A DNA stretch of 64,000 nucleotides from Oligoflexales bacterium (GCA_947494335.1 CANLUT010000002.1:579904-643903), one strand, 5' to 3'. Positions 23,501-49,743 are shown, counted from the first letter of the stretch. Notes: generated by a model not told the origin, from the letters alone. Numbers and translations: made by a program.

Positions 23501-26500
23501 GGCGATGATGTTTGGTAGAAAATCTGGGCTTGGAATAAACGAGATGGTTAATTTAGGACGCGACTTCGACCACCTGAGGATTTGTTCAAAGATCAAAGTG
23601 TTATCGGTTACAACATAGAGGCGGTCGATGGTTTTATTGCCCACCCGCTCGTTTAGAATTTTACTGATTGAATTTTGGTTGACGGATTTTGTCTCTGAAT
23701 CAGGTGCAATGGTTCGGATTCCTTCTTCTCCCATTGGAGAAATGAAAGACAGGGTGACGACTCCGTCATCACCTTTGTAGAACGTGACCATAACTTCTGA
23801 GGCATTGAGAGCTGCGCCAATTCGCTCCGCTTTTCCAATTCGGAACAGCTCAGAAACCTGAGACGTTATTTGATTTTGGCTTTCGCCCTGGCCTCCTTGA
23901 ATGATGAGGCGAGACATGATCGAAAAGTATTGGCGTAGAAGTCGTAACTTAGCGTCGGCGTCAGCATCGTTTTTGGCCAGTTGTGTCTCCACACATGTGC
24001 GCATTAATGTGGCATCGTTTTCAAGGATCTTTCCTCCTGAGCTTACATGAGAGGATAAAGCCTCGATGGCTTGGGTGCACAGACCTCGTGTGGCCAGGTA
24101 TTTCCAGGCAAGACCAGGCCTTGAGACGGCGGATCTTCGAAACTCAATGTGTGAGCTGAGAATTTCCTGGCGATTTGGATTCTTAGCAGCCTCGTCACGA
24201 TCCAGATTTAGGTTCGCGCTATTGACGAATGGTAGCTCTAGCCCGAGTTTCTGCGCCAAGAGGATCGACTCCTGAAACTTTGACTGCGCGATCGATCGTC
24301 TTTCATCTGTGGTGAGAATGTCTGAGGATATAATCTGTGCTAGTACCGAGTTCAGCGCAGCAGCGGCTAGCGATGCGTCACGATTACCAGAGGCCACTGG
24401 TTTTGAAAGTTCGTTGAGGGCCTGCGTTAACTGCTTTTCAATTTGGGCTTGCTCTTCTTTTGGTAGGGTCTTTAAGTCAGCGCGTCGAAGCTGAGTTCGC
24501 GCAAGGTCAAGAAGATTTATCCATTCAGACCTCGATGGGAACTCCTGGCCTTTTGAACGTAGGGTCTGCGCATATCCTAAACCTTCACTAAAATGCTTCA
24601 TTGCTTCTGGAAGCTGCCCCATGTTGGCGAGAAGGTATCCGAGATTATTATGAGACACTGCAAGATCTTCTGATAAATAGCCTTCTCCAAATCCGAATTT
24701 TTTTCCTCTTTTACGTTTCTCGTTTAGAAGCGCTATTTTCTGAATCAACTCGTCCTGCGCCTTTTTCAGGTCCCCTTGTCCTTCCCGTATTTGAGCTCTG
24801 AATGAGGCGATCTGAATTTTTTGATCTAAAGAGGTGAAACCCCGCGCCGCAGAATTCTCGCCAGCTATATCAATAAGAATTCCGTCGGATGTCTTAAGGT
24901 TATCTTCAGTTTTGATTTCGGCTAACAGGATTTCTGCTTTTGCGTATTGCTCGAGCGCCTGTTCACGTTTGCTGGCCATCATGAAGCAGTAGGCAATATT
25001 GATTCTTGTTGTGACCAAGTTGGCCTTGTTTCCCAGTTTTGATTGAACCTCAAGAAGTTTAGAGTAGGCTACCCTTGCTTCTTCGACTTTCCCTTGCTCC
25101 CGTAAGGTCAATGCGAGTGCGTCAATAGCGTAAGCCTTATCGATGTCGCTACCGTATGATATTGCAAGCTGCAGTGAGCGTTTTTGCATCGTTTCGGCTA
25201 CTTTCAATTCGTCAGCAAAAAACGCAGAACGACCAGCATGGCGGAATAAACGCATTTCAGATCTCTGGTCAGCAAATGGTCTAAGCTGCAGCATAGATAT
25301 GCGCCTCAGGTAGTGCCTCAGGCTCAGAGTAAAGGTTTGGTTTTCAAAATACGAGTTAGCTAATTGGAGTGAGAGCTCGGCCTTATCGGCTGATTCCTCG
25401 TCTGCTAAGTAGTATGCCGTCAAGCTTGAATCGATGGAGAGTTCGAACCAATTGGGGTCTGAAAATCCAAAAAATGACTTTGTATTGGTCCAGGAGGATG
25501 CGAGCCTTCCTGTAAATGATTTGTCCATGCTTTCAGCTTGAGCGCTGTGCGCCTTTTCAAGATAGAGTTTTCCAAGAAGTTTGTGGAACTGCGGTATTTG
25601 TCCGTTTATCTGCCTAGCGTTTTCCAGAATTTCAATAGCCTCCGAGATAGCTTTTGTCCTTATACTGGATGTTGTTCGTTTCTGTTTTTGCAATGCATAG
25701 GCGAGTAAGTAAAGTCGAACGGGATCTCGCGGCGCTTCTTCCGACAAGGTCCGTCGAGATTTTATCGTGGTTGAAAGCTCATCCAGAACTTCAGCAACAT
25801 CAATCATGCCTTCTTGAGCCGATATGTTGCCTGGATTGATCTCCGTAGATTTTTCAAATGCTCTTCGAGCAAGTGCGCTTTCACCTTCGTTTAGAAGAAT
25901 TCGACCACGCCTGACATAAAATTCCGATTCCATTTGAGCCGCTTCGCTGCGATCTGAATAGGTAGATTTTTTTATTGCTTCGCGCAAATCGTCAAAAACA
26001 GCGAGAACGATTGAAATTCGACCATTCGATTCTTCTCTTTTTATCAGAAACCGGGCGGCTTCAAGATATATGTGAGGCGGGGCCTCTGCTTCCTTTAAAA
26101 GTAATCTGTATTCGCTACTCGCAGCGTCCGCCTTATCGGTTAGTGCCATGACTTCGCCAAGGCGTTTTCGAATGTACCCACGAAGCGTTCCCGACCCTCG
26201 ACATCTTTCTAAAATGTCATTCAATTTCGAAATGGCCTCTGGATCATTTGGTTTTATTGCGTCCATGAGGTCGATGGCAGCATAGTGTAGCGTCGTCTTT
26301 TCTCCCGGAAATTTGCGCTCTAATTGGATTAGAACGGCTGTTGCCTCTTGGAGTCGTCGTCTTGCGGCTTCAATGCGAACCAGGTAGCCTAATGCCTTGG
26401 CTGCGTCATATTGATGGTGAGACGACTCCCCCGCAATAGATCTCAAAGTGATTTCAGCCAAGCGAAAGTCGCCCTTCGTTGCTGCGATTTCACTCAAGAC

Positions 26501-27940: not shown

Positions 27941-27942
27941 GA

Positions 27943-28521
27943 TTATTGCTTGACCGTCCACCGATTGCCCACATTGAACCAATGTCCTGTTGGAGATTTC
28001 TCAAAGATATCTCGCGCAAAATTTGTACGAATTTGAGATTCCTCCGAATCTTTTGACTTGGCCTCGTCGGTGATTGAGCTCTTCCAAATAATGCCGCGAT
28101 CACGATTTTCCTCGTCTATCAATGCCTCGGCCAGCTTGATTTGCTCGGGTGACGCCTGCGTAACTCCGCCGAGGGATTTTGGGAGCAAGCCGACAGAACC
28201 GTCAGAAGTTTCTCCGATGATTCCGTTATCTTTGAGTTCTTTAATATCGTCAGCATTGAACTCTCGGTTTTTCTGTGCGCGCTCGAGCTCGACGGTTGCT
28301 AGAGACTTTCGTTGTGACTTTACCTCAATATCCTTTGAAGTTTTTTCAAAGTTAGTAACGATAAGGTCGTCTTCAAGCTCTCGATAGTTCCCCATGATCT
28401 GATTCTCTAGTGCTGTTTTTTGAGATGTCAGCTCAAATTTGAAGGAGCAAGCGCTTAGAAGTAGTGCGCTCGTGATTGTTAGGATTCGAAGTTCCGGTAA
28501 GCGATTAGTGTGCAGAATCAT
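27943..28521 (-). CDS. DUF1318/YdbL-like lipoprotein
   Basis: Lipobox LLLSAC. GIIGETSDGSVGLLPK, EALIDEENRDRGIIW and the C-terminal GHWFNVGNRWTVKQ resemble E. coli YdbL family features. Overlaps the upstream gene by 17 nt. Confidence 0.55.
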   Translation of the reverse strand: MILHTNRLPELRILTITSALLLSACSFKFELTSQKTALENQIMGNYRELEDDLIVTNFEKTSKDIEVKSQRKSLATVELERAQKNREFNADDIKELKDNGIIGETSDGSVGLLPKSLGGVTQASPEQIKLAEALIDEENRDRGIIWKSSITDEAKSKDSEESQIRTNFARDIFEKSPTGHWFNVGNRWTVKQ

Positions 28522-33003: not shown

Positions 33004-33266
33004 AAAATAGTGGTCGCAACAGTCACAAAATAGCTGGATAGCAGGGGTTTGCCACTGAATTTTTCAAGAAATTTTTAAGAATTTATTTAATCATTTTCTA
33101 TCGAGCTATTAATATCGATGCAGTATGTGTTTAAAAAACTAAGGAATTCATGCATTTAAAAGAAAATGGGGGCTTGCATGTTGCCGACAAAGCCACTAGA
33201 AACTCGGCGTTCGATGGGCAGGGTGCCCCCAGTAGTATTACTTTTAATCGAAGGAGAACGCACACG

Positions 33267-33746
33267 ATGGATCTGCTTCACTTCATGAAAGAGGAGTATT
33301 CGGCAATTAGGTCCGAATTTCCGGCGCTGGTTGCCAATGATATCCCGCAAGTTTTGTCGGGTAAGGCGCTTGATCAGTTTATGACGCGTGTTGAGCTTGT
33401 GACTAGAGTTGGCGGCGAGCTTGTGATTCCAGAGTTGGTCGATGCAGGCCGGGGAGCTTCTGCTGCGGCAATGCTGGCAGAAGAGCAAACCAAAGTGATT
33501 CGTCGCTTGGTTGCATCTTACAGCAAGCACCGGGAGCTTCCAGAGCCGAAAATTATTGAGATATTTCGGAAGGTTGGCCGACACCTAGACCAGATGGAAA
33601 AGGTTGTTCTGCCATTGGTTCGAGAGCTTATTCCCACGGCAGTCCGCGAGGAAATCGGCGAGATCGCATTGGATTACCGCGAAGACTTGGCGGCAGTTAA
33701 TGTGAAACCGGCTAGCAGCAAGCTCAAGACCACAATAAGCGCTTGA
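33267..33746 (+). CDS. Hypothetical protein (weakly hemerythrin-like helical protein)
   Basis: Start set to ATG 33267, preceded by AAGGAGAA 8 nt upstream. The MDLLHFMKEEYSAIRSEF... and HLDQMEKVVLPLV pattern only loosely resembles the HHE domain. Confidence 0.45.
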   Translation: MDLLHFMKEEYSAIRSEFPALVANDIPQVLSGKALDQFMTRVELVTRVGGELVIPELVDAGRGASAAAMLAEEQTKVIRRLVASYSKHRELPEPKIIEIFRKVGRHLDQMEKVVLPLVRELIPTAVREEIGEIALDYREDLAAVNVKPASSKLKTTISA

Positions 33747-37063: not shown

Positions 37064-37630
37064 ATGGGTGACGCTCTTGTGTGGAGTGAGGTTCAGTTGA
37101 CTATAAAGCATTTATTTGACCAAAAACGCATGCGCGTCTGTCATTGGAACGCAACTCCAGGATTTATTTCTGCAGCTTCTGCTGCCATCGAGCATCACCT
37201 TAAACTTTTAATAAAATTAGATATGGTTGAGGTGCGTTCGCTAGACGACCCCAACCTAAGGCCGGCTGATGTGCTGTTTATTTCAGCAGATGGTATTGAG
37301 GACGAACAGTATCCCGTATGGCTAAAAGGTATAAGTACTCGAATTCCCAAGGCTCACGGCATTCCTGTACCTACGATTATTTTTGGTAATATTTCGTCGG
37401 CTGTCCAGTCAGAGATTCTGCGATGGGCAGTTGAAGGCAATTGGTATTTTGATATTGTCGACCCCGGCCATGTCTCAAGCTTAACTGTGCGTGTTGCCAA
37501 CTTCCTAAGGGTTCATGATCACCTTCATGAGATCCGGCGCATGAGTATCGCCAGCAAGACTTTGGAGGACAAGGTTGCGGACATGGAAAAACAAATTGAG
37601 CAAATATTGAAAGGCCCCACCAAGCCGTGA
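37064..37630 (+). CDS. Hypothetical protein (receiver-like fold with C-terminal coiled coil; weak)
   Basis: 188-aa ORF. VLFISADG and PTIIFGN resemble CheY beta3/beta4, followed by a helical tail. Its stop overlaps the next start (GTGA). Confidence 0.45.
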   Translation: MGDALVWSEVQLTIKHLFDQKRMRVCHWNATPGFISAASAAIEHHLKLLIKLDMVEVRSLDDPNLRPADVLFISADGIEDEQYPVWLKGISTRIPKAHGIPVPTIIFGNISSAVQSEILRWAVEGNWYFDIVDPGHVSSLTVRVANFLRVHDHLHEIRRMSIASKTLEDKVADMEKQIEQILKGPTKP

Positions 37631-37917
37631 CCATGATTGACGCCAAAAATATGTCCGACGAAGGTTTAATCGCACATTATGTGATTGAGCTTCTTGGAGC
37701 CGGACATTTCCTGTCCCATGATGACTACGCGCGGCTTGGAAAGTGGCGTGAACTGTCTTCGTCAACTGATGAGCTGCTTCTCGTCTTAGATGAAGTCCTG
37801 TCCGCAAAAATTATGAAATCTCGTCAAAAGGGCAAAAAAGTTTTTTCTCTCTCCTCGATCAGCAAAACTATGGAAAAAAGGCTGAGTGAGCGAAAAATGC
37901 TCGTTCAAGGGGCTTAA
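37627..37917 (+). CDS. Hypothetical small protein
   Basis: 96-aa ORF, translationally coupled on both sides. Alternative ATG at 37633. No family recognised. Confidence 0.4.
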   Translation: MTMIDAKNMSDEGLIAHYVIELLGAGHFLSHDDYARLGKWRELSSSTDELLLVLDEVLSAKIMKSRQKGKKVFSLSSISKTMEKRLSERKMLVQGA

Positions 37918-37918
37918 C

Positions 37919-38314
37919 ATGTCAAAAACTACTGATGTCGATATGGACAAGATTGTCGAAAGATTGAAAATAGACCGCATCAAGCGGCATATTTTTTTAT
38001 GTACTGGAGACAAATGTTGTTCGGCAGAGACTGGCATGAAAACCTGGGAGTTCCTTAAAAAACGAACTAAGGATGCTGATGCCGTTGAGGCTGGAGTTTA
38101 CCGAACAAAGGTTGGTTGTCTTCGCATTTGCCGCGAAGGTCCTATAGCTCTCGTTTACCCCGAAGGGGTTTGGTACAAAAATGTCACGGTTGACGCATGC
38201 GAGAAAATCATCGATCAGCATTTGATCTGTGGACAAATTGTGGAAGAACTAAAAATCGCCGAGCATTCATTACATCTGGATTTATCGTCAGGTGGCCAAT
38301 GGGACACCCCCTAG
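37919..38314 (+). CDS. Thioredoxin-like [2Fe-2S] ferredoxin family protein
   Basis: HIFLCTGDKCC and GCLRICREGP give the CX4C...CX3C cysteine pattern of thioredoxin-fold 2Fe-2S ferredoxins. The ATG at 37919 lies 1 nt after the upstream stop. Confidence 0.6.
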   Translation: MSKTTDVDMDKIVERLKIDRIKRHIFLCTGDKCCSAETGMKTWEFLKKRTKDADAVEAGVYRTKVGCLRICREGPIALVYPEGVWYKNVTVDACEKIIDQHLICGQIVEELKIAEHSLHLDLSSGGQWDTP

Positions 38315-38423: not shown

Positions 38424-38438
38424 ATTGACGTCGTCAAT
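38424..38438. promoter_or_regulatory. Perfect 7-1-7 palindrome ATTGACG-T-CGTCAAT upstream of the rhodopsin gene (candidate operator overlapping a -35-like TTGACG)
   Basis: Read directly from the sequence. It lies 84-98 nt upstream of the ATG at 38522. TTGACG, an 18-nt spacer, then GACAAT could be a promoter. Confidence 0.3.
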
Positions 38439-38521
38439 TTAAATATGAGACAATCTACTGAGGAATTCACATTAATGTTCAGTGTCTAGGTTGCTAATTT
38501 AATTTGGAGTGGAGTCAAAGT

Positions 38522-39283
38522 ATGACGGAACTAACAGCAGCGCAGTTTTCGCTCGTTTACAACATGTTTTCTTTAACCATTGCTAGTATGGGGGCAGCAT
38601 TCATCTTCTTCCTAGCATCTAGGTCGCAAGTCGCGCCGAAATACCGTGGTGCGCTTACAGTGTCATCGTTGGTGGTGGCGATTGCTTGCTATCACTATTT
38701 CCGTATCTTCAATAGCTGGAACGAAGCGTTTACCTTAAGCGGCGCAGTCTACACGCCATCTGGGAAACCATTCAACGATGCTTACCGCTATGTTGATTGG
38801 CTTTTGACAGTTCCTCTACTTCTTGTTGAACTCGTTGCAGTATTGGCTTTGCCAAAAAATCAGCGCGAAGGCCTCTTTGGTAAGCTAGCTATCGCGGCTT
38901 TCCTGATGATTGCACTTGGTTACCCTGGTGAAGTCGCTACAGATAACACAACTCGCGCCATTTGGGGCACACTGTCTTCGATCCCATTCGCATACATCCT
39001 AATGATCCTTTGGGGCAAATTGGGTGCAGCAATCGAAAGCCAGCCAGGCGAGGCTAAAGTCTACTTGACTAATATCCGCCTACTACTTCTTTTGACTTGG
39101 GGCTTCTACCCAATCACCTACATGCTTCCGATGTTCGGCATTGACCCACAATCCTCGGTTGTTGGTATTCAGGTTGGATATGCTGTCGCTGACGTGCTTG
39201 CAAAAGCCTTCTACGGCGTTATGATCTACTGGATCGCAAGAGCTAAGTCAGAAAACGAAGGTTTCGCTGACGCTGCCCACTAA
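38522..39283 (+). CDS. Microbial rhodopsin, proteorhodopsin/xanthorhodopsin-type outward proton pump (DTE motif)
   Basis: Seven TM helices. RYVDWLLTVPLLLVE gives D92/T96/E103 (the DTE motif). H58 sits in CYHYF (the PR/XR-clade His). L100 is at the spectral-tuning site. ADVLAK gives D224 and the Schiff-base K228. WGFYPITY is in helix F. The ATG at 38522 follows GGAGTGGAG. The track's TTG at 38504 is less likely. Confidence 0.9.
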   Translation: MTELTAAQFSLVYNMFSLTIASMGAAFIFFLASRSQVAPKYRGALTVSSLVVAIACYHYFRIFNSWNEAFTLSGAVYTPSGKPFNDAYRYVDWLLTVPLLLVELVAVLALPKNQREGLFGKLAIAAFLMIALGYPGEVATDNTTRAIWGTLSSIPFAYILMILWGKLGAAIESQPGEAKVYLTNIRLLLLLTWGFYPITYMLPMFGIDPQSSVVGIQVGYAVADVLAKAFYGVMIYWIARAKSENEGFADAAH

Positions 39284-39323: not shown

Positions 39324-41372
39324 TTAAACCGCCTTCGCTGAAAAGCGAGGCGGTTTTTTCTTCAGAAATCTTTTCATGACCGGCGCATGAGACGCAGTTA
39401 AAGCTCCGATCCCTAAGAAAACGATCTTCCAAATTTGTTGACTACCGCCTGAGCGCGCATAGAGCCAGGCGAGCAGAAGAATCCCTACAAGGCTCAAGGT
39501 CGTGTAGGGGAGACTTTTTAACAGGTATTGCTTAGATGACCAGCCTTTTGCAGCTCGTTGGACCGCAATAGAATCCCAGCCGTGCCAGAATGCGAAGAAA
39601 CAAAAAAACCCAGGCAGTAGAGGTAGCGCCAAGGTTGAAGCGGCGAGCGCCAATGTAGCGGGCATTCCGATCACAGACCTACCAAGAGTCTTACGCTCAT
39701 ATCGATCAAAAATCGCGGACACAAACAGTGCTGCAACGAAAACAAGTACGCCGCATGCGCGCGCGGCCTCCAAGGTGATTCCCTCGATTGAAAGCGAATC
39801 ACCAAGAATTAACTGAATAATCGAATTGGCCTCCTGCCAATGGACTAGAACACCAAAGGTTGCGGCAAAAAAACCCCATACCCAAGCTAACACGCGGCTC
39901 CAAGTGGCATTCTTCGAGCTTTTTATGGCACGAATCCAGTTTGCCTCGCCGAAATGATCTGCAGATTGGAACAGGAAAAATGCTAACGCCATCGGGGGAA
40001 ATACAAACCAAGTGAGAATAAACAGTGCTATGGAGCCAAGATAAACACCATAAAACTGATAGGGTCTTTGAGCTGTGGGCTCAAGGAGATGATCTACGCT
40101 GCCGTGCCCAATTCCAGTCGTTAACAGACCTATGATGGGAATCGTCCATCCGGCCAAACCACCAAGTGTCCAATGAAGAACGAGACTGGCCGACGCCGCA
40201 AATATAAACGGATACAAAACTAAAAGACTACGTAAAAATGGAGCCCAAGGCAGACCAAAAAATATTCTAATTTCTTCAGTAAATTTCGATTTTTCATCAA
40301 GGAATAAGAGGATTTTTGAGGGACTATTCGCAGAGAAAAGAATGCAAAATACTTTCGAGATCATTTCTCCATTTGTTCTGATAATTCGCAGAAGAAGTGC
40401 GTCATAAACCTGAAAGCGAAAATGTCCGTAGGACGTGGTCGCTAAACCAGTCAAATGCCGAAGGTTTCTCTGGAAAGAGTAGCCTGTGCTTGCTTTGACC
40501 ATACCAGCAGCACTACCAATGACCTGGATAACTGAACTAGAGTCAGACCCTGGGAATTTCGGCTCCGCATTGAGAGTCATGGGAATAGCACCTGATTCTA
40601 CCTTGAGGATTTGGAAGTCTGGTAAGCAAAGCTTGCTAGAAATATATTCTCGAAGTATTGACTCACACTTTTCCAATGAGATCCTGTTGGCTGCAAACAC
40701 CGTAAATTCGACCAAAGCGCGACGTCGATCAAACGGTAAAACATACACAAAGCGAACTTCGCCGCGTTGTTCAAGCCTAAAATCCATCAAGTCCACTATT
40801 TGCGGATCAAAGTAATCCCGCTCTGTTTCAAGTTCAAAACCGAGGAAATACTGTAATAATTCGGACTTTTCGACAGTCACAGAATTATAGATACGCTTGG
40901 CTGAAAACGTCTGGCCAGACGCGGTCGTGACGACGGCTATCCTCTCTGCGTTGACCTCCTCGGGTCGCTCTAGAATCTCGGTGACAGAATCTTTGAGTTT
41001 TTGAAATCTTATATCGTTTTCGAGTCTTTGCTTGATTTTGATTAGGAGGCGGTCCCCGGGAATTCTCTCGTAGTAGTAATCACCAAAGTTACAGATAATT
41101 GGCCGACCATCTGTCGAAGTTATCCGAAATTTCTCCCAGCGGTTTTCGATACAATCTGAATAACGATGGGGAGTGGTTGTTTTAAGGCGCCATGAGGCAA
41201 ATGTCTTGGATGAAAGCGACTCAGGGTCTGGATCGATGATCGCAACTCGAAGATCTTTTGACGGGTCATCTGCAAGAATATCGGCTTGCATCAGACCCGC
41301 TAACCCACCACCAACGATTATGACGTCGAAATCTGTCAAATTGGAGACCATTTTATCAGCCTCCCTTTCCAC
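39324..41372 (-). CDS. Fusion protein: lycopene beta-cyclase (CrtY family) N-terminal, Brp/Blh beta-carotene 15,15'-dioxygenase C-terminal
   Basis: Cyclase half (about aa 1-385): FAD fold DVIIVGGGLAGL, FVYVLPFDRRRALVEFTVF, VIGSAAGMVKASTGYSF. Blh half (about aa 385-682): polytopic, with conserved His motifs GIGHGSVDH, QSADHFGE and FAFWHGWDS. One uninterrupted frame. Alternative ATG at 41351. Confidence 0.85.
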   Translation of the reverse strand: MEREADKMVSNLTDFDVIIVGGGLAGLMQADILADDPSKDLRVAIIDPDPESLSSKTFASWRLKTTTPHRYSDCIENRWEKFRITSTDGRPIICNFGDYYYERIPGDRLLIKIKQRLENDIRFQKLKDSVTEILERPEEVNAERIAVVTTASGQTFSAKRIYNSVTVEKSELLQYFLGFELETERDYFDPQIVDLMDFRLEQRGEVRFVYVLPFDRRRALVEFTVFAANRISLEKCESILREYISSKLCLPDFQILKVESGAIPMTLNAEPKFPGSDSSSVIQVIGSAAGMVKASTGYSFQRNLRHLTGLATTSYGHFRFQVYDALLLRIIRTNGEMISKVFCILFSANSPSKILLFLDEKSKFTEEIRIFFGLPWAPFLRSLLVLYPFIFAASASLVLHWTLGGLAGWTIPIIGLLTTGIGHGSVDHLLEPTAQRPYQFYGVYLGSIALFILTWFVFPPMALAFFLFQSADHFGEANWIRAIKSSKNATWSRVLAWVWGFFAATFGVLVHWQEANSIIQLILGDSLSIEGITLEAARACGVLVFVAALFVSAIFDRYERKTLGRSVIGMPATLALAASTLALPLLPGFFCFFAFWHGWDSIAVQRAAKGWSSKQYLLKSLPYTTLSLVGILLLAWLYARSGGSQQIWKIVFLGIGALTASHAPVMKRFLKKKPPRFSAKAV
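39326..39359 (+). terminator. Rho-independent terminator for the rhodopsin gene, embedded in the 3' codons of the convergent crtY-blh gene
   Basis: AAACCGCCTTCGC-tgaaaa-GCGAGGCGGTTTTTT: a stem with one bulge followed by a T6 tract. Confidence 0.6.
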
Positions 41373-42493
41373 TCATAGCGACCACTCTGACTGGTCCTTA
41401 GGGCCTTGTAAGCAGCGATGTCCAATAGCAGTAAACTGAGCGGGTGCAGCAGTAGATCACGAAGTGGCATCATAAAACATTTAGCCACTAAAACCCTGCT
41501 CAAAGCCAACAAACAAAGTGAAATAAAGGCCAACTCGGGTCGAAAAAAATAACCCCAAATTGGAAATAGAAAAACAAAATTAATAAATCCGATAACGCAT
41601 CTAAAAACCGACGGTGTACCACCACCGATCGCCACTAGATTTTTCGAAAATCCAGCCAAGGTAGCCCGCCAATCGGGGTACATCGATACCCGAATGTGAC
41701 TCGCTGAGAGAACTGGCTGAAGACCACGACCTGTGACTCGGTGAATCTGACGCGCCAGTTCGACGTCCTCTAACGGGGTCGAACCAAGACCTCGGTGACC
41801 GCCGCTTTTACAATAGTCCCTCTTGAAGATGGCGACCCATTGCCCATTTGCCATCTGCATCGATTGCAAGGGTAAGCGCCACGAGCAAAACAAGGGTAGC
41901 GACATCATTAATGGAAGATGCATAATCCATGGTATCAGTAAACGCTCACGCAAGCCTTGGCACGACTGTGCTGGTAAAGCCGATAACCCGGACATTAGCT
42001 CGCGCGCCCGTGGCTGCATCAAGAGATCTACGGTACAACGAACAGCGCTGGGCGAGGGTCGCACATCGGCGTCGCAGAAAATTAAAATATCTCCATTAGC
42101 TAAGTCGGCAAGTTGTGCGCAAGCATGAGCTTTCCCCGAGATTTCTTTACTATCGTTCCATGGGACTCCCCGCACGATCTTTAATGGGATAGTAGTATTT
42201 GACAAGAACGAGTTTGCAATCGCTGAGGAGTCGTCGTGAGACTCGTCATCTAAAATAATCACCTCCATTGGTCTGTAAGTTGATGCCAGCAGATTCGTCA
42301 GAAGGTGGGGGATATTTTCGGCCTCATTTCGAACAGGTATGAGTAAACTGACCAGGGGTTTTTCACCTGAATATTCAGTCACACTTCCCAGTTTAGTTGC
42401 AAAAATTGCATTAAGGATGACCATTATCGTGGAGATAACAATGACCGAGAATGAAATCAAACTTACGATGTTACTGAGGAGGGTTAGATCCAT
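41336..42493 (-). CDS. Family-2 glycosyltransferase (candidate carotenoid glycosyltransferase, CruC/CruG-like)
   Basis: VSLLIPVRNEAENI...VIILDDESHDDS and FCDADV are GT2 (GT-A) motifs, with C-terminal TM helices. Overlaps both neighbours within the crt operon. Confidence 0.7.
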   Translation of the reverse strand: MDLTLLSNIVSLISFSVIVISTIMVILNAIFATKLGSVTEYSGEKPLVSLLIPVRNEAENIPHLLTNLLASTYRPMEVIILDDESHDDSSAIANSFLSNTTIPLKIVRGVPWNDSKEISGKAHACAQLADLANGDILIFCDADVRPSPSAVRCTVDLLMQPRARELMSGLSALPAQSCQGLRERLLIPWIMHLPLMMSLPLFCSWRLPLQSMQMANGQWVAIFKRDYCKSGGHRGLGSTPLEDVELARQIHRVTGRGLQPVLSASHIRVSMYPDWRATLAGFSKNLVAIGGGTPSVFRCVIGFINFVFLFPIWGYFFRPELAFISLCLLALSRVLVAKCFMMPLRDLLLHPLSLLLLDIAAYKALRTSQSGRYEWKGRLIKWSPI

Positions 42494-43152
42494 CGGTGGA
42501 CGCCTCCTGCTAGTAAAGTCTGGGGTGCGTTCAAGGATGCTACATCTAAAATTTTTGTGACTTCAGTCTCTAAAGTTTTATGATCAACTTCAGTACGCGC
42601 GCTATCAATTGGTTGACCGGCGTAAATGAAGGCCGTCGGCCTCTCATGATTCATAGGCTCAATGTGCAGCCCAATAGGAACGTACTGAACCCGACCTGTA
42701 ATTTTAGATAGTATTTCAATTCCACGCAGAAAGCCGAGTGGCCGTTGCCGCAGTGGTGATATTTTCCCTTGTGGGAAAAATGTTAGAGTCCGATAAGGAT
42801 TACTGGCAACCAGGTCTCGAAACTGCATAAAAGCTCGACGCACACTTGTTGGATTTCCCGGCTCTATTCCAAAGCAACCCACCTTGCGTAAGATTGGGAA
42901 TTTCGCAAGTTCGCTTTCCAGCATCAATGAGAAGATACCGGATCCAGGCCTCAGGCGATTTTGGACTTCAAAGCAGAAAAAACCATCCCACCAGCTAATA
43001 TGATTTGGCACCAATATAACTGGTACCTCAGGATTCAGTTGACCAATGGCGTTTTTCAAATCGAAATGTATAGATGCAAAACATTTCTGGTACTTCCAAT
43101 GGAGGTACCGATCCCAAAACCATCGGACAATGTCGTTATGTCGAGGTGCCAC
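42484..43152 (-). CDS. PlsC-type acyltransferase (candidate carotenoid-glycoside acyltransferase, CruD-like)
   Basis: HX4D motif in VPNHISWWDGF, and FFPQGK. The functional assignment is by context. Confidence 0.65.
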   Translation of the reverse strand: MAPRHNDIVRWFWDRYLHWKYQKCFASIHFDLKNAIGQLNPEVPVILVPNHISWWDGFFCFEVQNRLRPGSGIFSLMLESELAKFPILRKVGCFGIEPGNPTSVRRAFMQFRDLVASNPYRTLTFFPQGKISPLRQRPLGFLRGIEILSKITGRVQYVPIGLHIEPMNHERPTAFIYAGQPIDSARTEVDHKTLETEVTKILDVASLNAPQTLLAGGVHRWI

Positions 43153-44017
43153 GGGTCAATAATCCGAGCTGCAAAGTCCCTCGCGTGAAACTAAAAAGAC
43201 AGAGTAATAATAGTGTAACGGTCGTAAGAACAACAGGTGACCAGGCTGATCCAGCAATTGAAAGACCAACCGGAAGGGACAGGCTTAACAAGTAAAATTT
43301 GGCAGGCCACGAACGCTCAAAGCGATGGCCATAATTTGATAAACCCAAAATCTCAAAACTGAGGAATATTAAAAAGCCGGTGAGCAACCATCCAAAAAGA
43401 TTTCTGACGGCAACTCCTAAGAAAAAGACCCCAGACTCTTCCCAAATCCAGTAAGGAGTTAACTGACTCATGGCAGGCTCCAGGGTGAAATCCCAGGCGA
43501 CTAGGAGCAATGATGCTATGATGATCCGTCCGAGGGGATGCGCCAAGCGACCTATAGAGCCTCGAGAGGCTCTCAGAGGTTTAGGCCCAAGAATCTGATT
43601 TGCTAGCAGATAACAACACAGAGCCATGCAAAACCAACTCACAGGAATCAACACAGGAACTTTATCGCCAAGCTTCCATCCAAGGAGGCTCGTATAGGAA
43701 TATTTGCCAAACGGGATACCGTAGCTTGTGCCGCCAAATTCCATAAAAAAACTGATCAAAAAAGCAGGCAGAAAGTACACCAGCCAACGCCAGCCCAAAA
43801 CTTTGTGGGCGGCCCTTATGCACAACCAAAAGCAAAGAAGAATCTGCAATCTAGCAAAAAGCGGGTATGATATGGCATAAATTGGCGGAGACCACGGATA
43901 GCGCGCAAAAAGCTCTGGATGTAGCGTAAAAGTTGCGTATCCAAAAATTGATATGGCATTAATGAAAAGCAAGGCCCACATTGGGGAGAAGAATAGCACA
44001 TGAGTCACTCGGGGCAA
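43136..44017 (-). CDS. Carotenoid biosynthesis membrane protein, DUF422/CruF-like (candidate carotenoid 1',2'-hydratase)
   Basis: Polytopic. GGTSYGIPFGKYSYTSLLGW and LEPAMS...WIWEESGVFFLGVAVRNLFGW resemble the Caroten_synth/CruF family. The track start is TTG 44017. ATG 43981 (MWALLFIN...) is a plausible alternative. Confidence 0.6.
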   Translation of the reverse strand: MPRVTHVLFFSPMWALLFINAISIFGYATFTLHPELFARYPWSPPIYAISYPLFARLQILLCFWLCIRAAHKVLGWRWLVYFLPAFLISFFMEFGGTSYGIPFGKYSYTSLLGWKLGDKVPVLIPVSWFCMALCCYLLANQILGPKPLRASRGSIGRLAHPLGRIIIASLLLVAWDFTLEPAMSQLTPYWIWEESGVFFLGVAVRNLFGWLLTGFLIFLSFEILGLSNYGHRFERSWPAKFYLLSLSLPVGLSIAGSAWSPVVLTTVTLLLLCLFSFTRGTLQLGLLTRGTST

Positions 44018-44761
44018 GGATATTTAGGACGTACGACAGTCATCAGCAGTGACAGCACAGCTCCGGCCTTAGGATGTTTAGTCGTTACCACATGGGTTGT
44101 AAGCCTTTGGTATGCGTTTACGCGCGTTCAAACAGGTGTTTTCCCTGACTCTTTAGCCAGCATTGCCTTAATGCTCTGGATGCAGTTTCTTTATTGTGGT
44201 CTATTTATCGTGACCCACGATGCCTGCCATGGCACTGCGTGGCCCGGAAATCCGAGGCTGAATCGATGGCTGGGGAAAACTACAGCGATGCTGTATGCGG
44301 CCTTTGATTTCGATCATCTGGTCCCGAAGCACCTTGCTCATCACGCTCATGTTGCAACCCTCCAAGATCCAGATTTCCACGATAATACTCGGCAGGGGAG
44401 AGGTTTTTCCGCCTGGGGTTGGCGATTTTTTAAGCATTATCTGAGCCTAAGGCAAATTCTTATCATGATGGCTGTGGCTCAGATTTTTTTTCATGTGCTG
44501 AATATACCGGAGAGAAACGTCATCCAATTTTGGATCGTCCCAGCTATTTTGAGTGGCATGCAGCTCTTTCTATTCGGCACTTGGCTACCACACAGGCCAA
44601 AAGCTGGTGAAGAGTTTCCCGATCGTCATCACGCGAGAGACTCTGGACTACCTTGGTTATTATCACTCGTTTCCTGCTGGCATTTCGGCTACCATCATAT
44701 TCATCACTTGAAACCCAGCGTGCCTTGGTACAGGTTACCGTCCTATAGGAGGCGAAAATGA
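44000..44761 (+). CDS. crtW: Beta-carotene 4-ketolase, CrtW type
   Basis: Fatty-acid-desaturase-type His boxes in CrtW arrangement: FIVTHDACHG, KHLAHHAH, DPDFH, WLPHRP and HFGYHHIHHL..PWYRLP. Confidence 0.85.
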   Translation: MSHSGQGYLGRTTVISSDSTAPALGCLVVTTWVVSLWYAFTRVQTGVFPDSLASIALMLWMQFLYCGLFIVTHDACHGTAWPGNPRLNRWLGKTTAMLYAAFDFDHLVPKHLAHHAHVATLQDPDFHDNTRQGRGFSAWGWRFFKHYLSLRQILIMMAVAQIFFHVLNIPERNVIQFWIVPAILSGMQLFLFGTWLPHRPKAGEEFPDRHHARDSGLPWLLSLVSCWHFGYHHIHHLKPSVPWYRLPSYRRRK

Positions 44762-44964
44762 AATTGCGATCGATCTTAATGTGGACCACGGGTGGCGCGT
44801 TGTTTGGAGTCGCCTTCGGAGCGATAGCTTCTATCTTTCAAGGTGGTCCAGATATGATGCGAGGTATCCAGGAATCATGGTGGTGGTTTGGCGTCGCTGG
44901 ATTTTTGATATCAACGATCGGCAACGGCAGCGATCCCGCGAGTGGCTCTAGTCAATCTCATTGA
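44758..44964 (+). CDS. Small two-TM membrane protein, translationally coupled to crtW
   Basis: The ATG overlaps the crtW stop (ATGA), with AGGAGG 5 nt upstream. 68 aa with two hydrophobic helices (GGALFGVAFGAIASIF; WWWFGVAGFLISTIG). Its last 54 nt overlap the 3' end of convergent crtB. Confidence 0.45.
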   Translation: MKLRSILMWTTGGALFGVAFGAIASIFQGGPDMMRGIQESWWWFGVAGFLISTIGNGSDPASGSSQSH

Positions 44965-45822
44965 CCCCAGTCCTTTGATCTTGAATACAAGTAATAGACC
45001 CTGAGCGACTGCGACTAACTTGCCCAGATTCGAAACCACAGTTCGCCTGCGGAACGCAGATTCTGGATTTACTTTCGCAGATCGCAACAGTTTATGCCCA
45101 ATTCGCTGATAAACCTTACCTGCGATTGCAATGGCAAAAGACACTCTCCAAGGCAGCCAGTAGATCCCTTGAAATCCATGTTCATACAACTCGTCTGCTC
45201 TTCGAAGTAGTTTGTTGACCGCATAGTGCGCAATTTCAGGATTGGTCGACAAAACCTTTGCGTCGATATTAACCAAAAGATCTTTGGGTATATAGATGCG
45301 ACCAATACTTGCATCGGCTTGGATATCTCGGGCGATGTTAGTCAACTGCATCGCAGAGCCCAGAGAAATAGCGTGAGCACTTGCCTGGTCAGGATGAGCT
45401 CCGAGAAGTGGGCACATCATAAGTCCTACGACGCCCGCGACACGAAAGCAATACTGTTCGAGCTCTTTGAGATTCCCGTAGCGGCAGCCTTCCACATCCA
45501 TGCGCATACCGGCAATGAATTCTGATCGCTGCCAGTCATCTAGCCAAAGCGGTCCAGAAAGAGCTGCATTTACTGACCCACGATTTTCCATCAGGGAAAG
45601 TCGTGCCTCTGCCGACTGCGAGTCAGGTGCATCATCGATGGCGTCATCACAGCGCCTACACCACTGATAAAGAAGTAAGACTTTGTCTCGGCAGCTCTTC
45701 GGCAGGAAAAGTGAGGCTAAGGAGAAACTTTTTGAGCCTTGCTTGATGACTTCAGCTGGAGACGAAGTAAAGTTAATTGTTTGTGAGTAAGTCATGCGTC
45801 GCTCCCGGCTCGCGACTTCCAA
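44911..45822 (-). CDS. crtB: Phytoene synthase
   Basis: YCFRVAGVVGLMMCPLLG and AMQLTNIARDIQADASIGRIYIP are squalene/phytoene synthase signatures. Alternative ATG at 45795. Confidence 0.9.
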   Translation of the reverse strand: MEVASRERRMTYSQTINFTSSPAEVIKQGSKSFSLASLFLPKSCRDKVLLLYQWCRRCDDAIDDAPDSQSAEARLSLMENRGSVNAALSGPLWLDDWQRSEFIAGMRMDVEGCRYGNLKELEQYCFRVAGVVGLMMCPLLGAHPDQASAHAISLGSAMQLTNIARDIQADASIGRIYIPKDLLVNIDAKVLSTNPEIAHYAVNKLLRRADELYEHGFQGIYWLPWRVSFAIAIAGKVYQRIGHKLLRSAKVNPESAFRRRTVVSNLGKLVAVAQGLLLVFKIKGLGSMRLTRATRGIAAVADR

Positions 45823-47329
45823 CGGGGAGAGCTGCCTTCAAGTCTTGAAGTACCAAAGATGCAGTAGCCTTAGCCGAGTTGACGACTCCTGGAACGCCGG
45901 CGCCTGGATGAGTCCCAGCCCCTGTAAAGTACATTCCAGCAACTCGACCATCGCGGTTATGAGTGCGAAAGAATGCGCTTTGCCAGAGTACGGGTTCACT
46001 GGAAAACGCTGAGCCCAGGTGTGAGTTTAATTCAAATTTGAAATCCAACGGAGTGAAAATCTTCTGAGTCACAATGTGCTTGCGCAGGTCGGGAGCGTAA
46101 TGTTGCTCAATATAACTTAATATACGGTCTGCGTAGGCTGGGCCTTCCTTTTGCCAGTCTAAATGAAGATTTCCGAGGTGCGGCACTGGAGATAGAACGT
46201 AAAATGCTTCACACCCTTCAGGCGCCATCCCTGGATCAGTCCGCGTCGGAGCATGCAAGTAGAGAGAAAAATCATCCGGGATTTTACTAGCCTTGGAAAA
46301 GATTTGACTCAAAAGTCCACGGTAGGACTTTCCGAAAAGAATATTATGATGTGCAAGCTCTGGATACTGTTTGTTAGTACCAAAATACACTAAGAATAAT
46401 GACATGCTTTGCGAGTGACTAAGAACCTTCTTTCGTCCTTGCTCTGCCTCGGGGGCGTTTCTTAGAAGATGGCTGTACGTGTGTACAACATCCGCGTTGG
46501 AAACAACAACATCACAAGGCCATACGCCGCTTGCAGTTTTCACACCACTAACGTGACCCTCAGTTGTGATGATCTCCTCCACTGGCGACGATAATCGAAC
46601 CTCACCACCGAGCTCTTCAAAGAGTCTGACTAATGCACGAACCAAAGCACCCGTGCCACCGCGTGGGAAGAAGACACCCCACTTTCGCTCAAGATAGTGG
46701 ATCAAAGTATAAATAGAAGACGTTTTAAAAGGGTTGCCGCCAACCAATAGCGTGTGAAAACTGAAGGCTTGACGGAGCTGAGGATCCTTGATGAAACGTG
46801 CGACCGTCTTGAAAACTGAGCGATGAGCGCTTAGTTTGGCTAGCTGCGGAGCGACACGGATCATGCTCCACCAGTTTAGGAACGGCACGTGGGCTAGTTT
46901 CGTGTAACCCTCGTCAAAAACCTCTTTTGAATATTTCAGAAATCTGGAGTAGCCATCCGTATCTTGTGGGGATTTTTTTTGAATTTGATCAAAAGTGCTT
47001 ACGGGGTCGTTGGAGTAATCAAATGAAAACCCATTCTCCCAGAATAATCGATAGAAGGGCGTCACAGGCATCATCTCGACGTAGTCTTCCATCCTTTTAC
47101 CGGCACAGTCGAAAAGTTCTCGCAAACAGTCTGGAGCAGTGATGACAGTCGGTCCGGCGTCAAACGTAAAGCCTTTGTCCCGGTAAACGTATGCCCGGCC
47201 TCCGGGTTGATCCCGTTTTTCAAACACTACAACCTGATGGCCTGCCGCTTGCAATCGGATGGCGGCAGCAAGACCTCCAAACCCACTTCCAATGACAGCA
47301 ATACGAGCAGAGTTCTTATTTTTATGCAT
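45773..47329 (-). CDS. crtI: Phytoene desaturase
   Basis: N-terminal IAVIGSGFGGLAAAIRL and the C-terminal CrtI signature FTGAGTHPGAGVPGV. Confidence 0.9.
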   Translation of the reverse strand: MHKNKNSARIAVIGSGFGGLAAAIRLQAAGHQVVVFEKRDQPGGRAYVYRDKGFTFDAGPTVITAPDCLRELFDCAGKRMEDYVEMMPVTPFYRLFWENGFSFDYSNDPVSTFDQIQKKSPQDTDGYSRFLKYSKEVFDEGYTKLAHVPFLNWWSMIRVAPQLAKLSAHRSVFKTVARFIKDPQLRQAFSFHTLLVGGNPFKTSSIYTLIHYLERKWGVFFPRGGTGALVRALVRLFEELGGEVRLSSPVEEIITTEGHVSGVKTASGVWPCDVVVSNADVVHTYSHLLRNAPEAEQGRKKVLSHSQSMSLFLVYFGTNKQYPELAHHNILFGKSYRGLLSQIFSKASKIPDDFSLYLHAPTRTDPGMAPEGCEAFYVLSPVPHLGNLHLDWQKEGPAYADRILSYIEQHYAPDLRKHIVTQKIFTPLDFKFELNSHLGSAFSSEPVLWQSAFFRTHNRDGRVAGMYFTGAGTHPGAGVPGVVNSAKATASLVLQDLKAALPVGSREPGATHDLLTNN

Positions 47330-48380
47330 ATGCAGTCATCACTTTCTGTGCCAGCTCTCGTAGCGAGGATATTGCCGCCACTTGCGCGCTAGTTTCGACG
47401 ATACAATTTAACTGATCCAAACATGTTTCGAATTCTGTCGTTGCTAATTCATGAGCCTTCTCGACGACTCGCTTTAAGAGTAATGAATCATCACTAGAAA
47501 TTTGATTAGGATTTCCCATCAAGTGCTGAAATCTCATAAATTCCGCCGCTTCAAGTTCTCTGGCAGCTACAGCCCAAACCCAGGAAGGCCTGACTAGTGG
47601 CCTACTGATCGTTTGATTCTTATTTTTTGGCGATACATCTCCAATGTCGTTAAACATCTGTAAGGCCACGCCGAAACGCTGACCGAATTTTGCCAGACAG
47701 CGGCGTCTCATTGAGTCCGCCTCACCCACGATTGCGCCTAATTCAGCACACATACCAGTTAGCTCGCCAGTCTTCAGTTCTATCGCTGCAACGGAAATAT
47801 CGAGCGCTTTCTGTTGAGAGCATTGGGTCATGTCGTGGCCAAGGTCAAGAGCCTGCCCCTGATGAGCGTACAGCATGGTCTTGTGGAAAAGACGGTAGAT
47901 CTCGAGCTCAACGGATGGATTAAGAGCCTGCTGACGCAGTAAATCTATTGGCCAAAAATAAAGCCAGTTCGCCGCATTGATGGTACGTGGAACTCCGATC
48001 TGCATATGCAGCGCCGCCTTGCCGCGGCGCATTTCGTCTGCATCTTGGATGTCATCGATCATGAGTGAGCCAGCATGCAAGGCTTCAACCACGCATGCCA
48101 AGCAGTCGAGAAGTGATTGCTGGCTTGCGATCAAGGGTTCAGCCTTAGTATTGGCGATAGTAAATCCAATGTGAACTAGTTGCGCACGAACCTGCTTGGA
48201 ATTACGACTTGCAAACTCACGAACCGGTGCTACCAAAGCAGCGTCTAAACTAGGATCAGAGGCGCTCGGTAGATGAGCAGCTAAAATAGGCACTAGCTCG
48301 GACCGGGTGTTATTATTTTGCAAGTATGTTTTATGATTTATCACCGGGAGAAGGGTAATAGATGTCTCAGTCGGGGTCAA
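47322..48380 (-). CDS. crtE: Polyprenyl (geranylgeranyl) diphosphate synthase
   Basis: First Asp-rich motif LMIDDIQDADEMRRGK. The second motif is degenerate (FNDIGD). First gene of the crtE-crtI-crtB unit, with an 8-nt overlap onto crtI. TTG start in the ORF track. Confidence 0.8.
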   Translation of the reverse strand: MTPTETSITLLPVINHKTYLQNNNTRSELVPILAAHLPSASDPSLDAALVAPVREFASRNSKQVRAQLVHIGFTIANTKAEPLIASQQSLLDCLACVVEALHAGSLMIDDIQDADEMRRGKAALHMQIGVPRTINAANWLYFWPIDLLRQQALNPSVELEIYRLFHKTMLYAHQGQALDLGHDMTQCSQQKALDISVAAIELKTGELTGMCAELGAIVGEADSMRRRCLAKFGQRFGVALQMFNDIGDVSPKNKNQTISRPLVRPSWVWAVAARELEAAEFMRFQHLMGNPNQISSDDSLLLKRVVEKAHELATTEFETCLDQLNCIVETSAQVAAISSLRELAQKVMTAYA

Positions 48381-48609: not shown

Positions 48610-49743
48610 CTACTCGGTCAAAGATCTCAATCTTTTCGGATGAAAAATTGCTTGTACGGTTTTAGATCTGCCGTTAGCTATAAATTCCGAAAGTCCTCGC
48701 CCGGCTGCGCAGCCCAGGGTGAGTCCTGAGCCCATGTAGCCGCTGGCCATCAGAACTCTTGAATCATTATACATGGGTCCAATGATTGGAATTTCATCGC
48801 AAGCCCTAAGCTCAAGAAGTGCTTGCTGCTGTGTCGGCTTCGAAAGTTTCACATCAAAGAGCGACTCAATTCTTTGCTTGACGGTGCTAGTGATCTTTTC
48901 GTCTAGATGCGCTCGGCTTGCCTCTACGCCAGCCCACTTTCTTAGATACCTCGCTCCACCGGCGCGAAGCTTTCTGTCCGAGGTGACTGAAATCCAGTAT
49001 TGGCTAAAATCCGCGAGTAGAAGGTTGCCAGGAGTCAAAAACGGATGCCCTCCATCAAACTCAAACTCCGCCCACTGGTCGGCATGATTGACTAGGCAGG
49101 ATTCCATGTTGGGAATGATTTTTTTGATTCCAAGGTGACTTGCTACCACAACAACTTCTGCCGTCAGCGTTGTTCCTGAAGACGTGACAACCGAGATATG
49201 GCGAGGAGCTGTTTCAATTCTGATGACTTCCTCTGGAAAAATCTTTCTACTAAGGTCTTCTTCCATATGACGCAGTAAGGATCCTATATTGATTGATGCG
49301 GAAGCCGCACCATCCGACTGGTAGGTCAGTTTTCGTGTCCCGCGCCCATCAAGACTTACAGAGCTTGGAAAGCCATTGCTGGCAAGCCAAGAGCTGGCGA
49401 CGGCCATCTCCTGTGCTTCCATATCTGACTGGGTGAGCCGGTAAACCCGCCCCGCGTGGTGGTTAACTTTAAACTGAGTTATCAGATCCATTAAATCTGA
49501 AAAGCCGATACGACCGAGCCTTAACAGGTTTCTTGCAGCGTCCTCGCCGTGCCCGTGCACCGTTCGAGAGATGTTATCCAAAGTGGAAATGGCTGCGTAG
49601 CCCGAGTTTATAGAGGCGCAGTTGGTAAAGTCGCGACTCGGAGCAACAAAGCAAAAAGATCCAATGCCATAGCGCTTCAGGTGAAAGCCTGTACTCAGAC
49701 CCGTAATACCCCTTCCAATTATGATGACGTCGAATGCTTCCAT
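48610..49743 (-). CDS. FAD-dependent oxidoreductase (DAO/glycine-oxidase-like family)
   Basis: N-terminal dinucleotide fold FDVIIIGRGITGLSTG. 377 aa. Confidence 0.7.
   Translation of the reverse strand: MEAFDVIIIGRGITGLSTGFHLKRYGIGSFCFVAPSRDFTNCASINSGYAAISTLDNISRTVHGHGEDAARNLLRLGRIGFSDLMDLITQFKVNHHAGRVYRLTQSDMEAQEMAVASSWLASNGFPSSVSLDGRGTRKLTYQSDGAASASINIGSLLRHMEEDLSRKIFPEEVIRIETAPRHISVVTSSGTTLTAEVVVVASHLGIKKIIPNMESCLVNHADQWAEFEFDGGHPFLTPGNLLLADFSQYWISVTSDRKLRAGGARYLRKWAGVEASRAHLDEKITSTVKQRIESLFDVKLSKPTQQQALLELRACDEIPIIGPMYNDSRVLMASGYMGSGLTLGCAAGRGLSEFIANGRSKTVQAIFHPKRLRSLTE

Follow-up and report, generated by a model that had tools for sequence, protein, structure and literature searches.

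In the literature on carotenoid antennas of xanthorhodopsin (XR)-clade proteins, 4-keto carotenoids are seen as exceptions. They are used by the XR of Salinibacter ruber (SrXR, salinixanthin) and by Gloeobacter rhodopsin (GR, echinenone) only, whereas Kin4B8, from an uncultured freshwater member of the Bdellovibrionota, uses 3-hydroxy xanthophylls and the cyanobacterial psXR binds lutein. Which residues select a keto or a hydroxy carotenoid is under active question. We have analysed a stretch of 64,000 nucleotides from an Oligoflexales bacterium (GCA_947494335.1, CANLUT010000002.1:579904-643903), hereafter the window, in which an XR-clade opsin gene (38522-39283, plus strand) adjoins a cluster of carotenoid and retinal genes. 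We hypothesize, with a probability of about 0.6, that the opsin is a green-absorbing outward proton pump with a fenestration at Gly149, and that a salinixanthin-type 4-keto carotenoid made by the cluster would be its native antenna.

Carotenoid and retinal genes beside the opsin

The cluster converges on the opsin, with all of its genes within 9 kb:

38522-39283, plus strand: XR-clade opsin, 253 amino acids (aa) and a stop codon, from translation
39324-41372, minus strand: fusion of a CrtY-type lycopene cyclase with a Brp/Blh beta-carotene 15,15'-dioxygenase, 682 aa (Pfam, TIGR03753)
41336-42493, minus strand: family-2 glycosyltransferase, candidate carotenoid glycosyltransferase (CruC-like), by Pfam Glycos_transf_2 (2e-16) and context
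42484-43152, minus strand: acyltransferase, candidate carotenoid-glycoside acyltransferase (CruD-like), by a weak Pfam Acyltransferase match (3.8e-5, 24.0 bits against a cut-off of 23) and context
43136-44017, minus strand: CruF-type carotenoid 1',2'-hydratase (gamma-carotene 1'-hydroxylase), by Pfam Caroten_synth (1e-43)
44000-44761, plus strand: CrtW-type beta-carotene 4-ketolase, by NCBIfam CrtW (2e-66)
44911-45822, minus strand: phytoene synthase CrtB, by SQS_PSY and by NCBIfam CrtB models (2e-45, below equivalog cut-offs)
45773-47329, minus strand: CrtI-family phytoene desaturase, the sole desaturase in the cluster, by TIGR02734 crtI_fam (663.8 bits against a cut-off of 238)
47322-48380, minus strand: polyprenyl (geranylgeranyl diphosphate, GGPP) synthase in the CrtE role, by Pfam polyprenyl_synt and NCBIfam GGPP synthase (7e-22, below cut-off)

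CrtE, CrtB, CrtI and a lycopene cyclase, as needed for the synthesis and cyclisation of lycopene, are thus all present. In the fusion protein, the N-terminal part matches Lycopene_cycl (residues 16-308, 4e-50) and the C-terminal part matches BCD (residues 415-667, 4e-32), with a TIGR03753 score of 121.7 bits against a cut-off of 95. CruF is the best NCBIfam model for the hydratase (2e-40, 138.8 bits against an equivalog cut-off of 400). The ketolase scores 223.7 bits with CrtW (cut-off 350) and 61 bits with the CrtR hydroxylase; its relatives carry the annotation beta-carotene ketolase (CrtW type), and it is 45% identical to a ketolase of Sphingomonas parva. These matches suggest that it acts as a beta-ring 4-ketolase, with a substrate specificity to match. 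For the salinixanthin-type gamma-carotenoid acyl glucosides of Rhodothermus marinus, the proposed set combines a lycopene cyclase and a ketolase with CrtB, CruF, CrtI, a glycosyltransferase and an acyltransferase (PMC7414004). Judged by family matches, the window cluster would supply the same list, with CrtW replacing CrtO.

Linkage was surveyed within 10 kb or less on each side of the opsin at 80 XR loci. The XR, blh, glycosyltransferase, acyltransferase and cruF genes adjoin in all eight related Bdellovibrionota genomes (L006-L013) and crtW adjoins in seven of them, while the crtEIB block is rearranged and switches sides. This linkage was not seen at the other XR loci (0/72), and the idea that such linkage is a general trait of XRs was rejected. 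Genes that are unneeded for retinal have therefore been kept beside the opsin across considerable divergence, which argues for a functional tie. This conserved carotenoid and retinal cluster is the strongest support for an antenna role.

The CrtY-Blh fusion occurs in five of the related loci (L006-L010), and Blh stands alone in the other three (L011-L013). More than 50 database clusters carry both Lycopene_cycl and BCD and are annotated just as 'lycopene beta-cyclase' or 'Brp/Blh', and remoter cyclase-Blh fusions exist at 26-29% identity. A literature search found no earlier account of a Bdellovibrionota XR with a ketocarotenoid cluster or of a CrtY-Blh fusion, which is not proof of absence.

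Several smaller features were observed within and next to the cluster. The divergent cruF (minus strand) and crtW (plus strand) genes meet at 43999/44017 and 44000, with no spacer or with overlapping starts, so that their promoters must sit inside coding sequence. An open reading frame (ORF) of 68 aa (44758-44964, plus strand) follows crtW and is called in related contigs too. A FAD-dependent oxidoreductase gene (48610-49743, minus strand) matches Pfam DAO (9e-19) and shows a very weak resemblance to lycopene cyclases. It shares the strand of the GGPP synthase gene, 230 bp upstream of it, and its product could carry out a carotenoid step that the cluster lacks, for instance a desaturation or a hydroxylation. 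The R. marinus cluster also holds a FAD oxidoreductase whose role is not settled (PMC7414004).

The opsin and its predicted antenna site

The 253-aa protein is a clear XR. It matches Pfam Bac_rhodopsin (PF01036) with an E-value of 1.2e-37, and HMMER E-values range from 1e-75 to 1e-86 with the XR clade, compared with 1e-23 for proteorhodopsin (PR) and 1e-10 for bacteriorhodopsin (BR). Its best solved relatives are SrXR (2.9e-86), GR, Kin4B8, psXR and thermophilic rhodopsin (TR). Identity to SrXR, GR, Kin4B8 and psXR is 55-60%, and the protein is roughly equidistant from SrXR (60%), Kin4B8 (57%) and GR (55%). In a neighbour-joining tree, the window opsin and loci L006-L015 form one clade, and Kin4B8 is placed elsewhere, with L020.

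Residues were read from the translation and compared by HMMER alignment to the solved structures, in which the helix E region is free of gaps relative to GR, and in a MAFFT alignment that joined the window protein with BR, five solved XR-clade proteins and 85 related loci (92 sequences in all; the BR reference is identical to Protein Data Bank (PDB) chains such as 1o0a). His58 lies in CYHYF; D92 (38795-38797), T96, L100 and E103 lie in RYVDWLLTVPLLLVE; the Gly149 codon is 38966-38968; and D224 and K228 (39203-39205) lie within ADVLAK. The equivalent BR residues are D85 for D92, T89 for T96, L93 for L100, D96 for E103, D212 for D224 and K216 for K228. D92, T96, E103 and H58 align with SrXR D96, T100, E107 and H62, and L100 falls at the PR-105 tuning site. 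A first-pass annotation of this DNA had listed these residues and codons, and every one of them is where it was placed. It had also put Gly149 at the position of BR W138 and SrXR G156, an assignment that a proper alignment might have moved; both methods leave the residue at the fenestration, where it corresponds to GR G178, Kin4B8 G153 and psXR G172 as well.

An AlphaFold2 (AF2) model built with 43 homologues has seven helices (mean predicted local distance difference test 90.8; predicted template-modelling score 0.87). Template-modelling (TM) scores against 6nwd, 9wfa, 8i2z and 3ddl are 0.93-0.97, with a root-mean-square deviation (rmsd) of 1.1-1.7 A; superposition on GR gives 0.94/0.97 and 1.1 A. 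The top 11 Foldseek matches all belong to the XR clade, and GR, psXR, Kin4B8, SrXR and TR rank above every other rhodopsin. Helix A begins at residue 6 and is preceded by a short strand, which together with a predicted B-C hairpin matches the three-stranded sheet known in SrXR and Kin4B8. Such an N-terminus fits the earlier view that there is no signal peptide, and the alignment bears that view out, with residue 2-4 onward matching the N-termini of SrXR and Kin4B8. The reading of the protein as PR/XR-type, from its DTE motif (D92, T96 and E103), histidine partner, tuning leucine and fenestration glycine, survives both the multiple alignment and the comparison of folds. On these grounds the opsin is predicted to be a green-absorbing, light-driven outward proton pump.

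None of the listed residues is distinctive; they are family traits. Conservation was counted over 80 non-redundant relatives from reference genomes. The H, D, T, L, E, D and K positions are invariant in all 80, and since the tuning-site leucine is universal in the family, it predicts just the usual green absorption. The fenestration glycine is present in 78 of the 80, and the exceptions (L059 and L065) are a metagenome-assembled genome (MAG) labelled Chlamydiales, with Trp and other divergent site residues, and a MAG labelled Enterobacteriaceae, with Ala. According to Chazan et al., about 55% of environmental XRs, Kin4B8 among them, have this glycine, and a G153F substitution in Kin4B8 abolishes carotenoid binding. 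The opsin alone adds nothing new: fenestrated XRs with the DTE motif are abundant in fresh water, several have solved structures, and close relatives of this protein are already in public databases as xanthorhodopsin or bacteriorhodopsin.

The antenna site resembles that of SrXR. Seven residues through which SrXR contacts its carotenoid are kept by GR (G156, T160, N191, L197, I205, Y207 and M211; PMC3587595), and six of these are identical in the window opsin (G149, N184, L190, I198, Y200 and M204), with T160 replaced by S153. M201 corresponds to SrXR M208. Near the carotenoid ring, a quartet on transmembrane helix 6 (TM6) reads Y-M-M-A in SrXR, Y-L-M-L in GR and Y-A-S-Y in Kin4B8 (Y204-A205-S208-Y209) (PMC12308411 Table 2). 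The window quartet, Y200-M201-M204-F205, is hydrophobic and nearest to that of SrXR. Because the site is SrXR-like, a ketolase gene adjoins the opsin and the window has no hydroxylase gene, the native antenna is most likely a 4-keto carotenoid made by the host itself. The authors of the psXR study conclude that the choice of antenna follows the xanthophyll pool of the host (PMC12779958), which would also point to a ketocarotenoid here.

We infer the following scheme for the carotenoid product, its binding, the open fenestration, colour, energy transfer and proton pumping. CrtE, CrtB and CrtI would produce lycopene, and the CrtY domain would cyclise it. The fused Blh domain would cleave beta-carotene to retinal, which would bind the Schiff-base lysine, K228. 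Gamma-carotene would be converted by CruF, the glycosyltransferase, the acyltransferase and CrtW into a salinixanthin-type product, an acyl glycoside of a monocyclic 4-keto carotenoid. Gly149 on helix E probably leaves retinal's beta-ionone ring exposed to the lipid face, so the 4-keto ring could dock at helices E and F (Y200, M201 and M204) and, as happens in SrXR, hand the energy of absorbed blue light on to retinal. Upon illumination, the Schiff-base proton would move to D92, partnered by H58, and E103 would re-donate a proton.

Several points weigh against this scheme. The fenestration glycine is necessary and not sufficient for antenna binding (PMC12779958; bioRxiv 367102). psXR has a hydrophobic, GR-like site (Y-L-M-L) and yet binds lutein and not canthaxanthin (PMC12779958), so the residues of the site are no reliable predictor of keto or hydroxy preference. 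So far, 3-hydroxy xanthophylls have been the antenna in all tested XRs and PRs from fresh water or the sea. On the pathway side, the CruF, CrtW and CrtB scores all lie under the NCBIfam equivalog cut-offs, and the glycosyltransferase and acyltransferase match generic families, their CruC and CruD assignments resting on a conserved position between blh and cruF. A separate CrtD or 2'-hydroxylase gene was not found in the 64-kb window, which has one CrtI-family gene; in R. marinus the enzymes for 3',4'-desaturation and 2'-hydroxylation are likewise not settled (PMC7414004). The carotenoid could also serve in photoprotection alone, with the linkage reflecting a shared route to beta-carotene and retinal.

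Of the alternatives, the one that survives best keeps the pump and its open fenestration and fills the site with a 3-hydroxylated xanthophyll, for example zeaxanthin or lutein, in the manner of Kin4B8 and psXR. Genes elsewhere in the genome would make that xanthophyll, or the cell would obtain it from its surroundings or its prey, and the ketocarotenoid glycoside would be a membrane or photoprotective pigment. Kin4B8, also of the Bdellovibrionota, binds salinixanthin without energy transfer, while zeaxanthin and lutein transfer about 40%; the lutein preference of psXR tells the same way, and hydroxy-xanthophyll binders are reportedly the commoner type (PMC12779958). However, about 40 ORFs scanned with Pfam and NCBIfam models revealed no crtZ/crtR-type hydroxylase or further carotenoid genes elsewhere in the window, and the sole ring-modifying enzyme favours CrtW over CrtR by the scores given above. 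S208 is essential for zeaxanthin binding in Kin4B8, where S208A retains 2% of it (PMC12308411), but the equivalent here is Met204, and Kin4B8 Y209 is replaced by Phe. The window XR also belongs to another XR lineage than Kin4B8. We therefore consider a hydroxylated antenna unlikely, though it is the most serious competitor to a self-made 4-keto antenna.

Less likely still is a pump with retinal as its sole chromophore, in which Gly149 would be inherited without an antenna role and the crt genes would be linked only as a source of beta-carotene for retinal. Opsin-blh-crtEIBY clusters that serve purely for retinal supply are common. The near-universal occurrence of the glycine in the subfamily means that its presence alone carries little information, and the literature noted above holds it to be insufficient by itself. 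Retinal supply does not call for cruF, the glycosyltransferase, the acyltransferase or crtW, yet seven or eight divergent genomes keep these genes next to opsin and blh even as crtEIB changes place, and the antenna contacts are conserved with SrXR. Finally, a sensory role or the pumping of some other ion is very improbable, given a complete DTE motif with its histidine partner, close solved relatives that are all proton pumps, no transducer-like gene flanking the opsin, and only 26-31% identity to Na+ and Cl- pumps (NQ/NTQ types).

Selection, host and the rest of the window

The opsin gene is under strong purifying selection and is a working gene. The exact protein is encoded on at least nine metagenome contigs, one of which (ENA ERZ27280207 k141_4023804, 779 kb) matches the window at 100% identity across the 20.8 kb compared. 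In a second strain (L002-L004), DNA is 91% identical across the region and 92% identical within the opsin gene, with neighbouring proteins at 84-98% and the adjacent crt proteins at 84-95%. Against L002:10001-10762 there are 61 nucleotide differences in the opsin gene (60 at third codon positions, one at a first), all of them synonymous, and the protein is 100% identical. At 92% DNA identity, 61 silent and no replacement differences point to purifying selection, and they rule out recent gene transfer as the source of the identical protein.

Among reference genomes, the nearest are MAGs from fresh water with the labels Oligoflexales and 'Pseudobacteriovorax' (opsin identity 89-92%), followed by MAGs labelled Bdellovibrio, Pseudobdellovibrionaceae, Bacteriovoracaceae and Oligoflexia (72-75%). 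A freshwater, Oligoflexales-like bacterium of the Bdellovibrionota is the best explanation for the host.

Consensus scans gave two putative regulatory elements around the opsin gene:

38425-38454, plus strand: sigma-70-like promoter match (TTGACG, 18-nt spacer, TG-GACAAT)
39333-39360, plus strand: terminator-like stem-loop followed by a T-run

The promoter match lies about 70 nt 5' of the opsin ATG, and a GGAG is also found 5' of the ATG. The stem-loop starts 50 nt past the opsin stop codon and overlaps the convergent crtY-blh gene at its 3' end. Directly 5' of the opsin, on the same strand, are three small overlapping ORFs (37064-37630, 37627-37917 and 37886-38314). The last of these has some likeness to 2Fe-2S ferredoxins (NF041612), with a score of 61 bits that falls below the cut-off, and no family was matched by the first two. 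We rejected these ORFs as a core of the opsin module, as they are shared among the near-identical strains L001-L005 but are not conserved across L006-L013.

Elsewhere the window carries chromosomal housekeeping functions, with genes for methylmalonyl-CoA mutase, the futalosine pathway and UbiA/UbiX, and the S10 ribosomal operon. A giant ORF of 2466 aa (20582-27982, minus strand) encodes PD40 beta-propeller repeats, numerous TPR repeats and, at the C-terminus, a CHAT protease-like domain. Downstream of it, on the same strand, are a 192-aa ORF (27943-28521; its L002 counterpart is called DUF1318) and an AsmA-like ORF of 1102 aa. At the thresholds applied, neither Pfam nor NCBIfam gave a match for four sizeable plus-strand ORFs (716-1891, 7752-9800, 19785-20585 and 33150-33746, of 391, 682, 266 and 198 aa, respectively).

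Comparison with described systems

If it holds, a self-made 4-keto antenna in this bacterium would be the third natural system of its kind, after Salinibacter and Gloeobacter, and the first in a freshwater heterotroph. The broader proposal is that a freshwater Bdellovibrionota clade carries a cassette of about 10 kb (XR, CrtY-Blh, CrtW, CruF, glycosyltransferase and acyltransferase) that makes a salinixanthin-like 4-keto carotenoid as a dedicated antenna. We put this somewhat below even odds. The gene context is unsurprising to a specialist, but it may count as new in a modest way and be handy as a system for experiments. Its value is as context: complete, conserved genes for retinal and for a carotenoid that would be ketolated, glycosylated and acylated, together with an SrXR-like antenna site.

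SrXR (PDB 3DDL) is 58-60% identical to the window opsin (TM 0.93), which matches it at the DTE motif and at H62, G156, N191, L197, I205, Y207, M208 and M211. In contrast to SrXR, the window opsin lacks a 3-residue and a 4-residue insertion, including L148 and A212, and has Thr for F157 and Ser for T160. The hosts differ as well, S. ruber being a hypersaline member of the Bacteroidota. Unlike in the salinixanthin-type pathway, the ketolase of the window is of the CrtW type and not the CrtO type, and whereas S. ruber has CrtYcd, the window cyclase is of the CrtY type and is fused to Blh.

GR (6NWD) and psXR (9WFA) are the best structural matches (TM 0.93-0.97, rmsd 1.1-1.2 A). They share with the window opsin the loop lengths around helix E and the equivalents of T150 and M204, but have Leu where the window opsin and SrXR have Met201 and Met208. 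Both proteins are cyanobacterial, and within 10 kb their genes have no linked crt cluster.

A complex carotenoid antenna of the host's own making has been predicted before, for the actinorhodopsin of acI bacteria with its 'actinoxanthin' operon (Dwulit-Smith et al., bioRxiv 367102), from the fenestration glycine and from host cruF, glycosyltransferase and acyltransferase genes. That protein belongs to a different subfamily (RlActR is 46% identical to the window opsin). Its ketolase assignment is uncertain and its operon lies away from the opsin, whereas in the window a CrtW-type ketolase and the pathway abut the opsin.

Kin4B8 (PDB 7YTB/8I2Z) shares phylum, habitat, family and the fenestration glycine (G153) with the window opsin, to which it is 56-57% identical (TM 0.94-0.96). 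It represents a separate XR lineage, and at the sites of its A205, S208 and Y209 the window opsin has M201, M204 and F205, respectively. The XR nearest to Kin4B8 found here (64% identity) is that of a Bdellovibrionales MAG (L020), which has polar Ser and Trp at the TM6 sites. This opsin gene (L020:10004-10756) adjoins an RPE65-family carotenoid oxygenase gene (L020:8355-9914, minus strand, 4e-104) instead of blh, and no carotenoid synthesis genes were found in the 13 kb examined; this lineage may rely on carotenoids made by others. With the opsin and its presumed cognate pigment pathway on one 10-kb fragment, the window provides a ready test case for comparison with Kin4B8. If the 4-keto antenna is confirmed, the window XR and the hydroxy-preferring Kin4B8, both from the same phylum, would form a natural pair for the study of keto and hydroxy selectivity.

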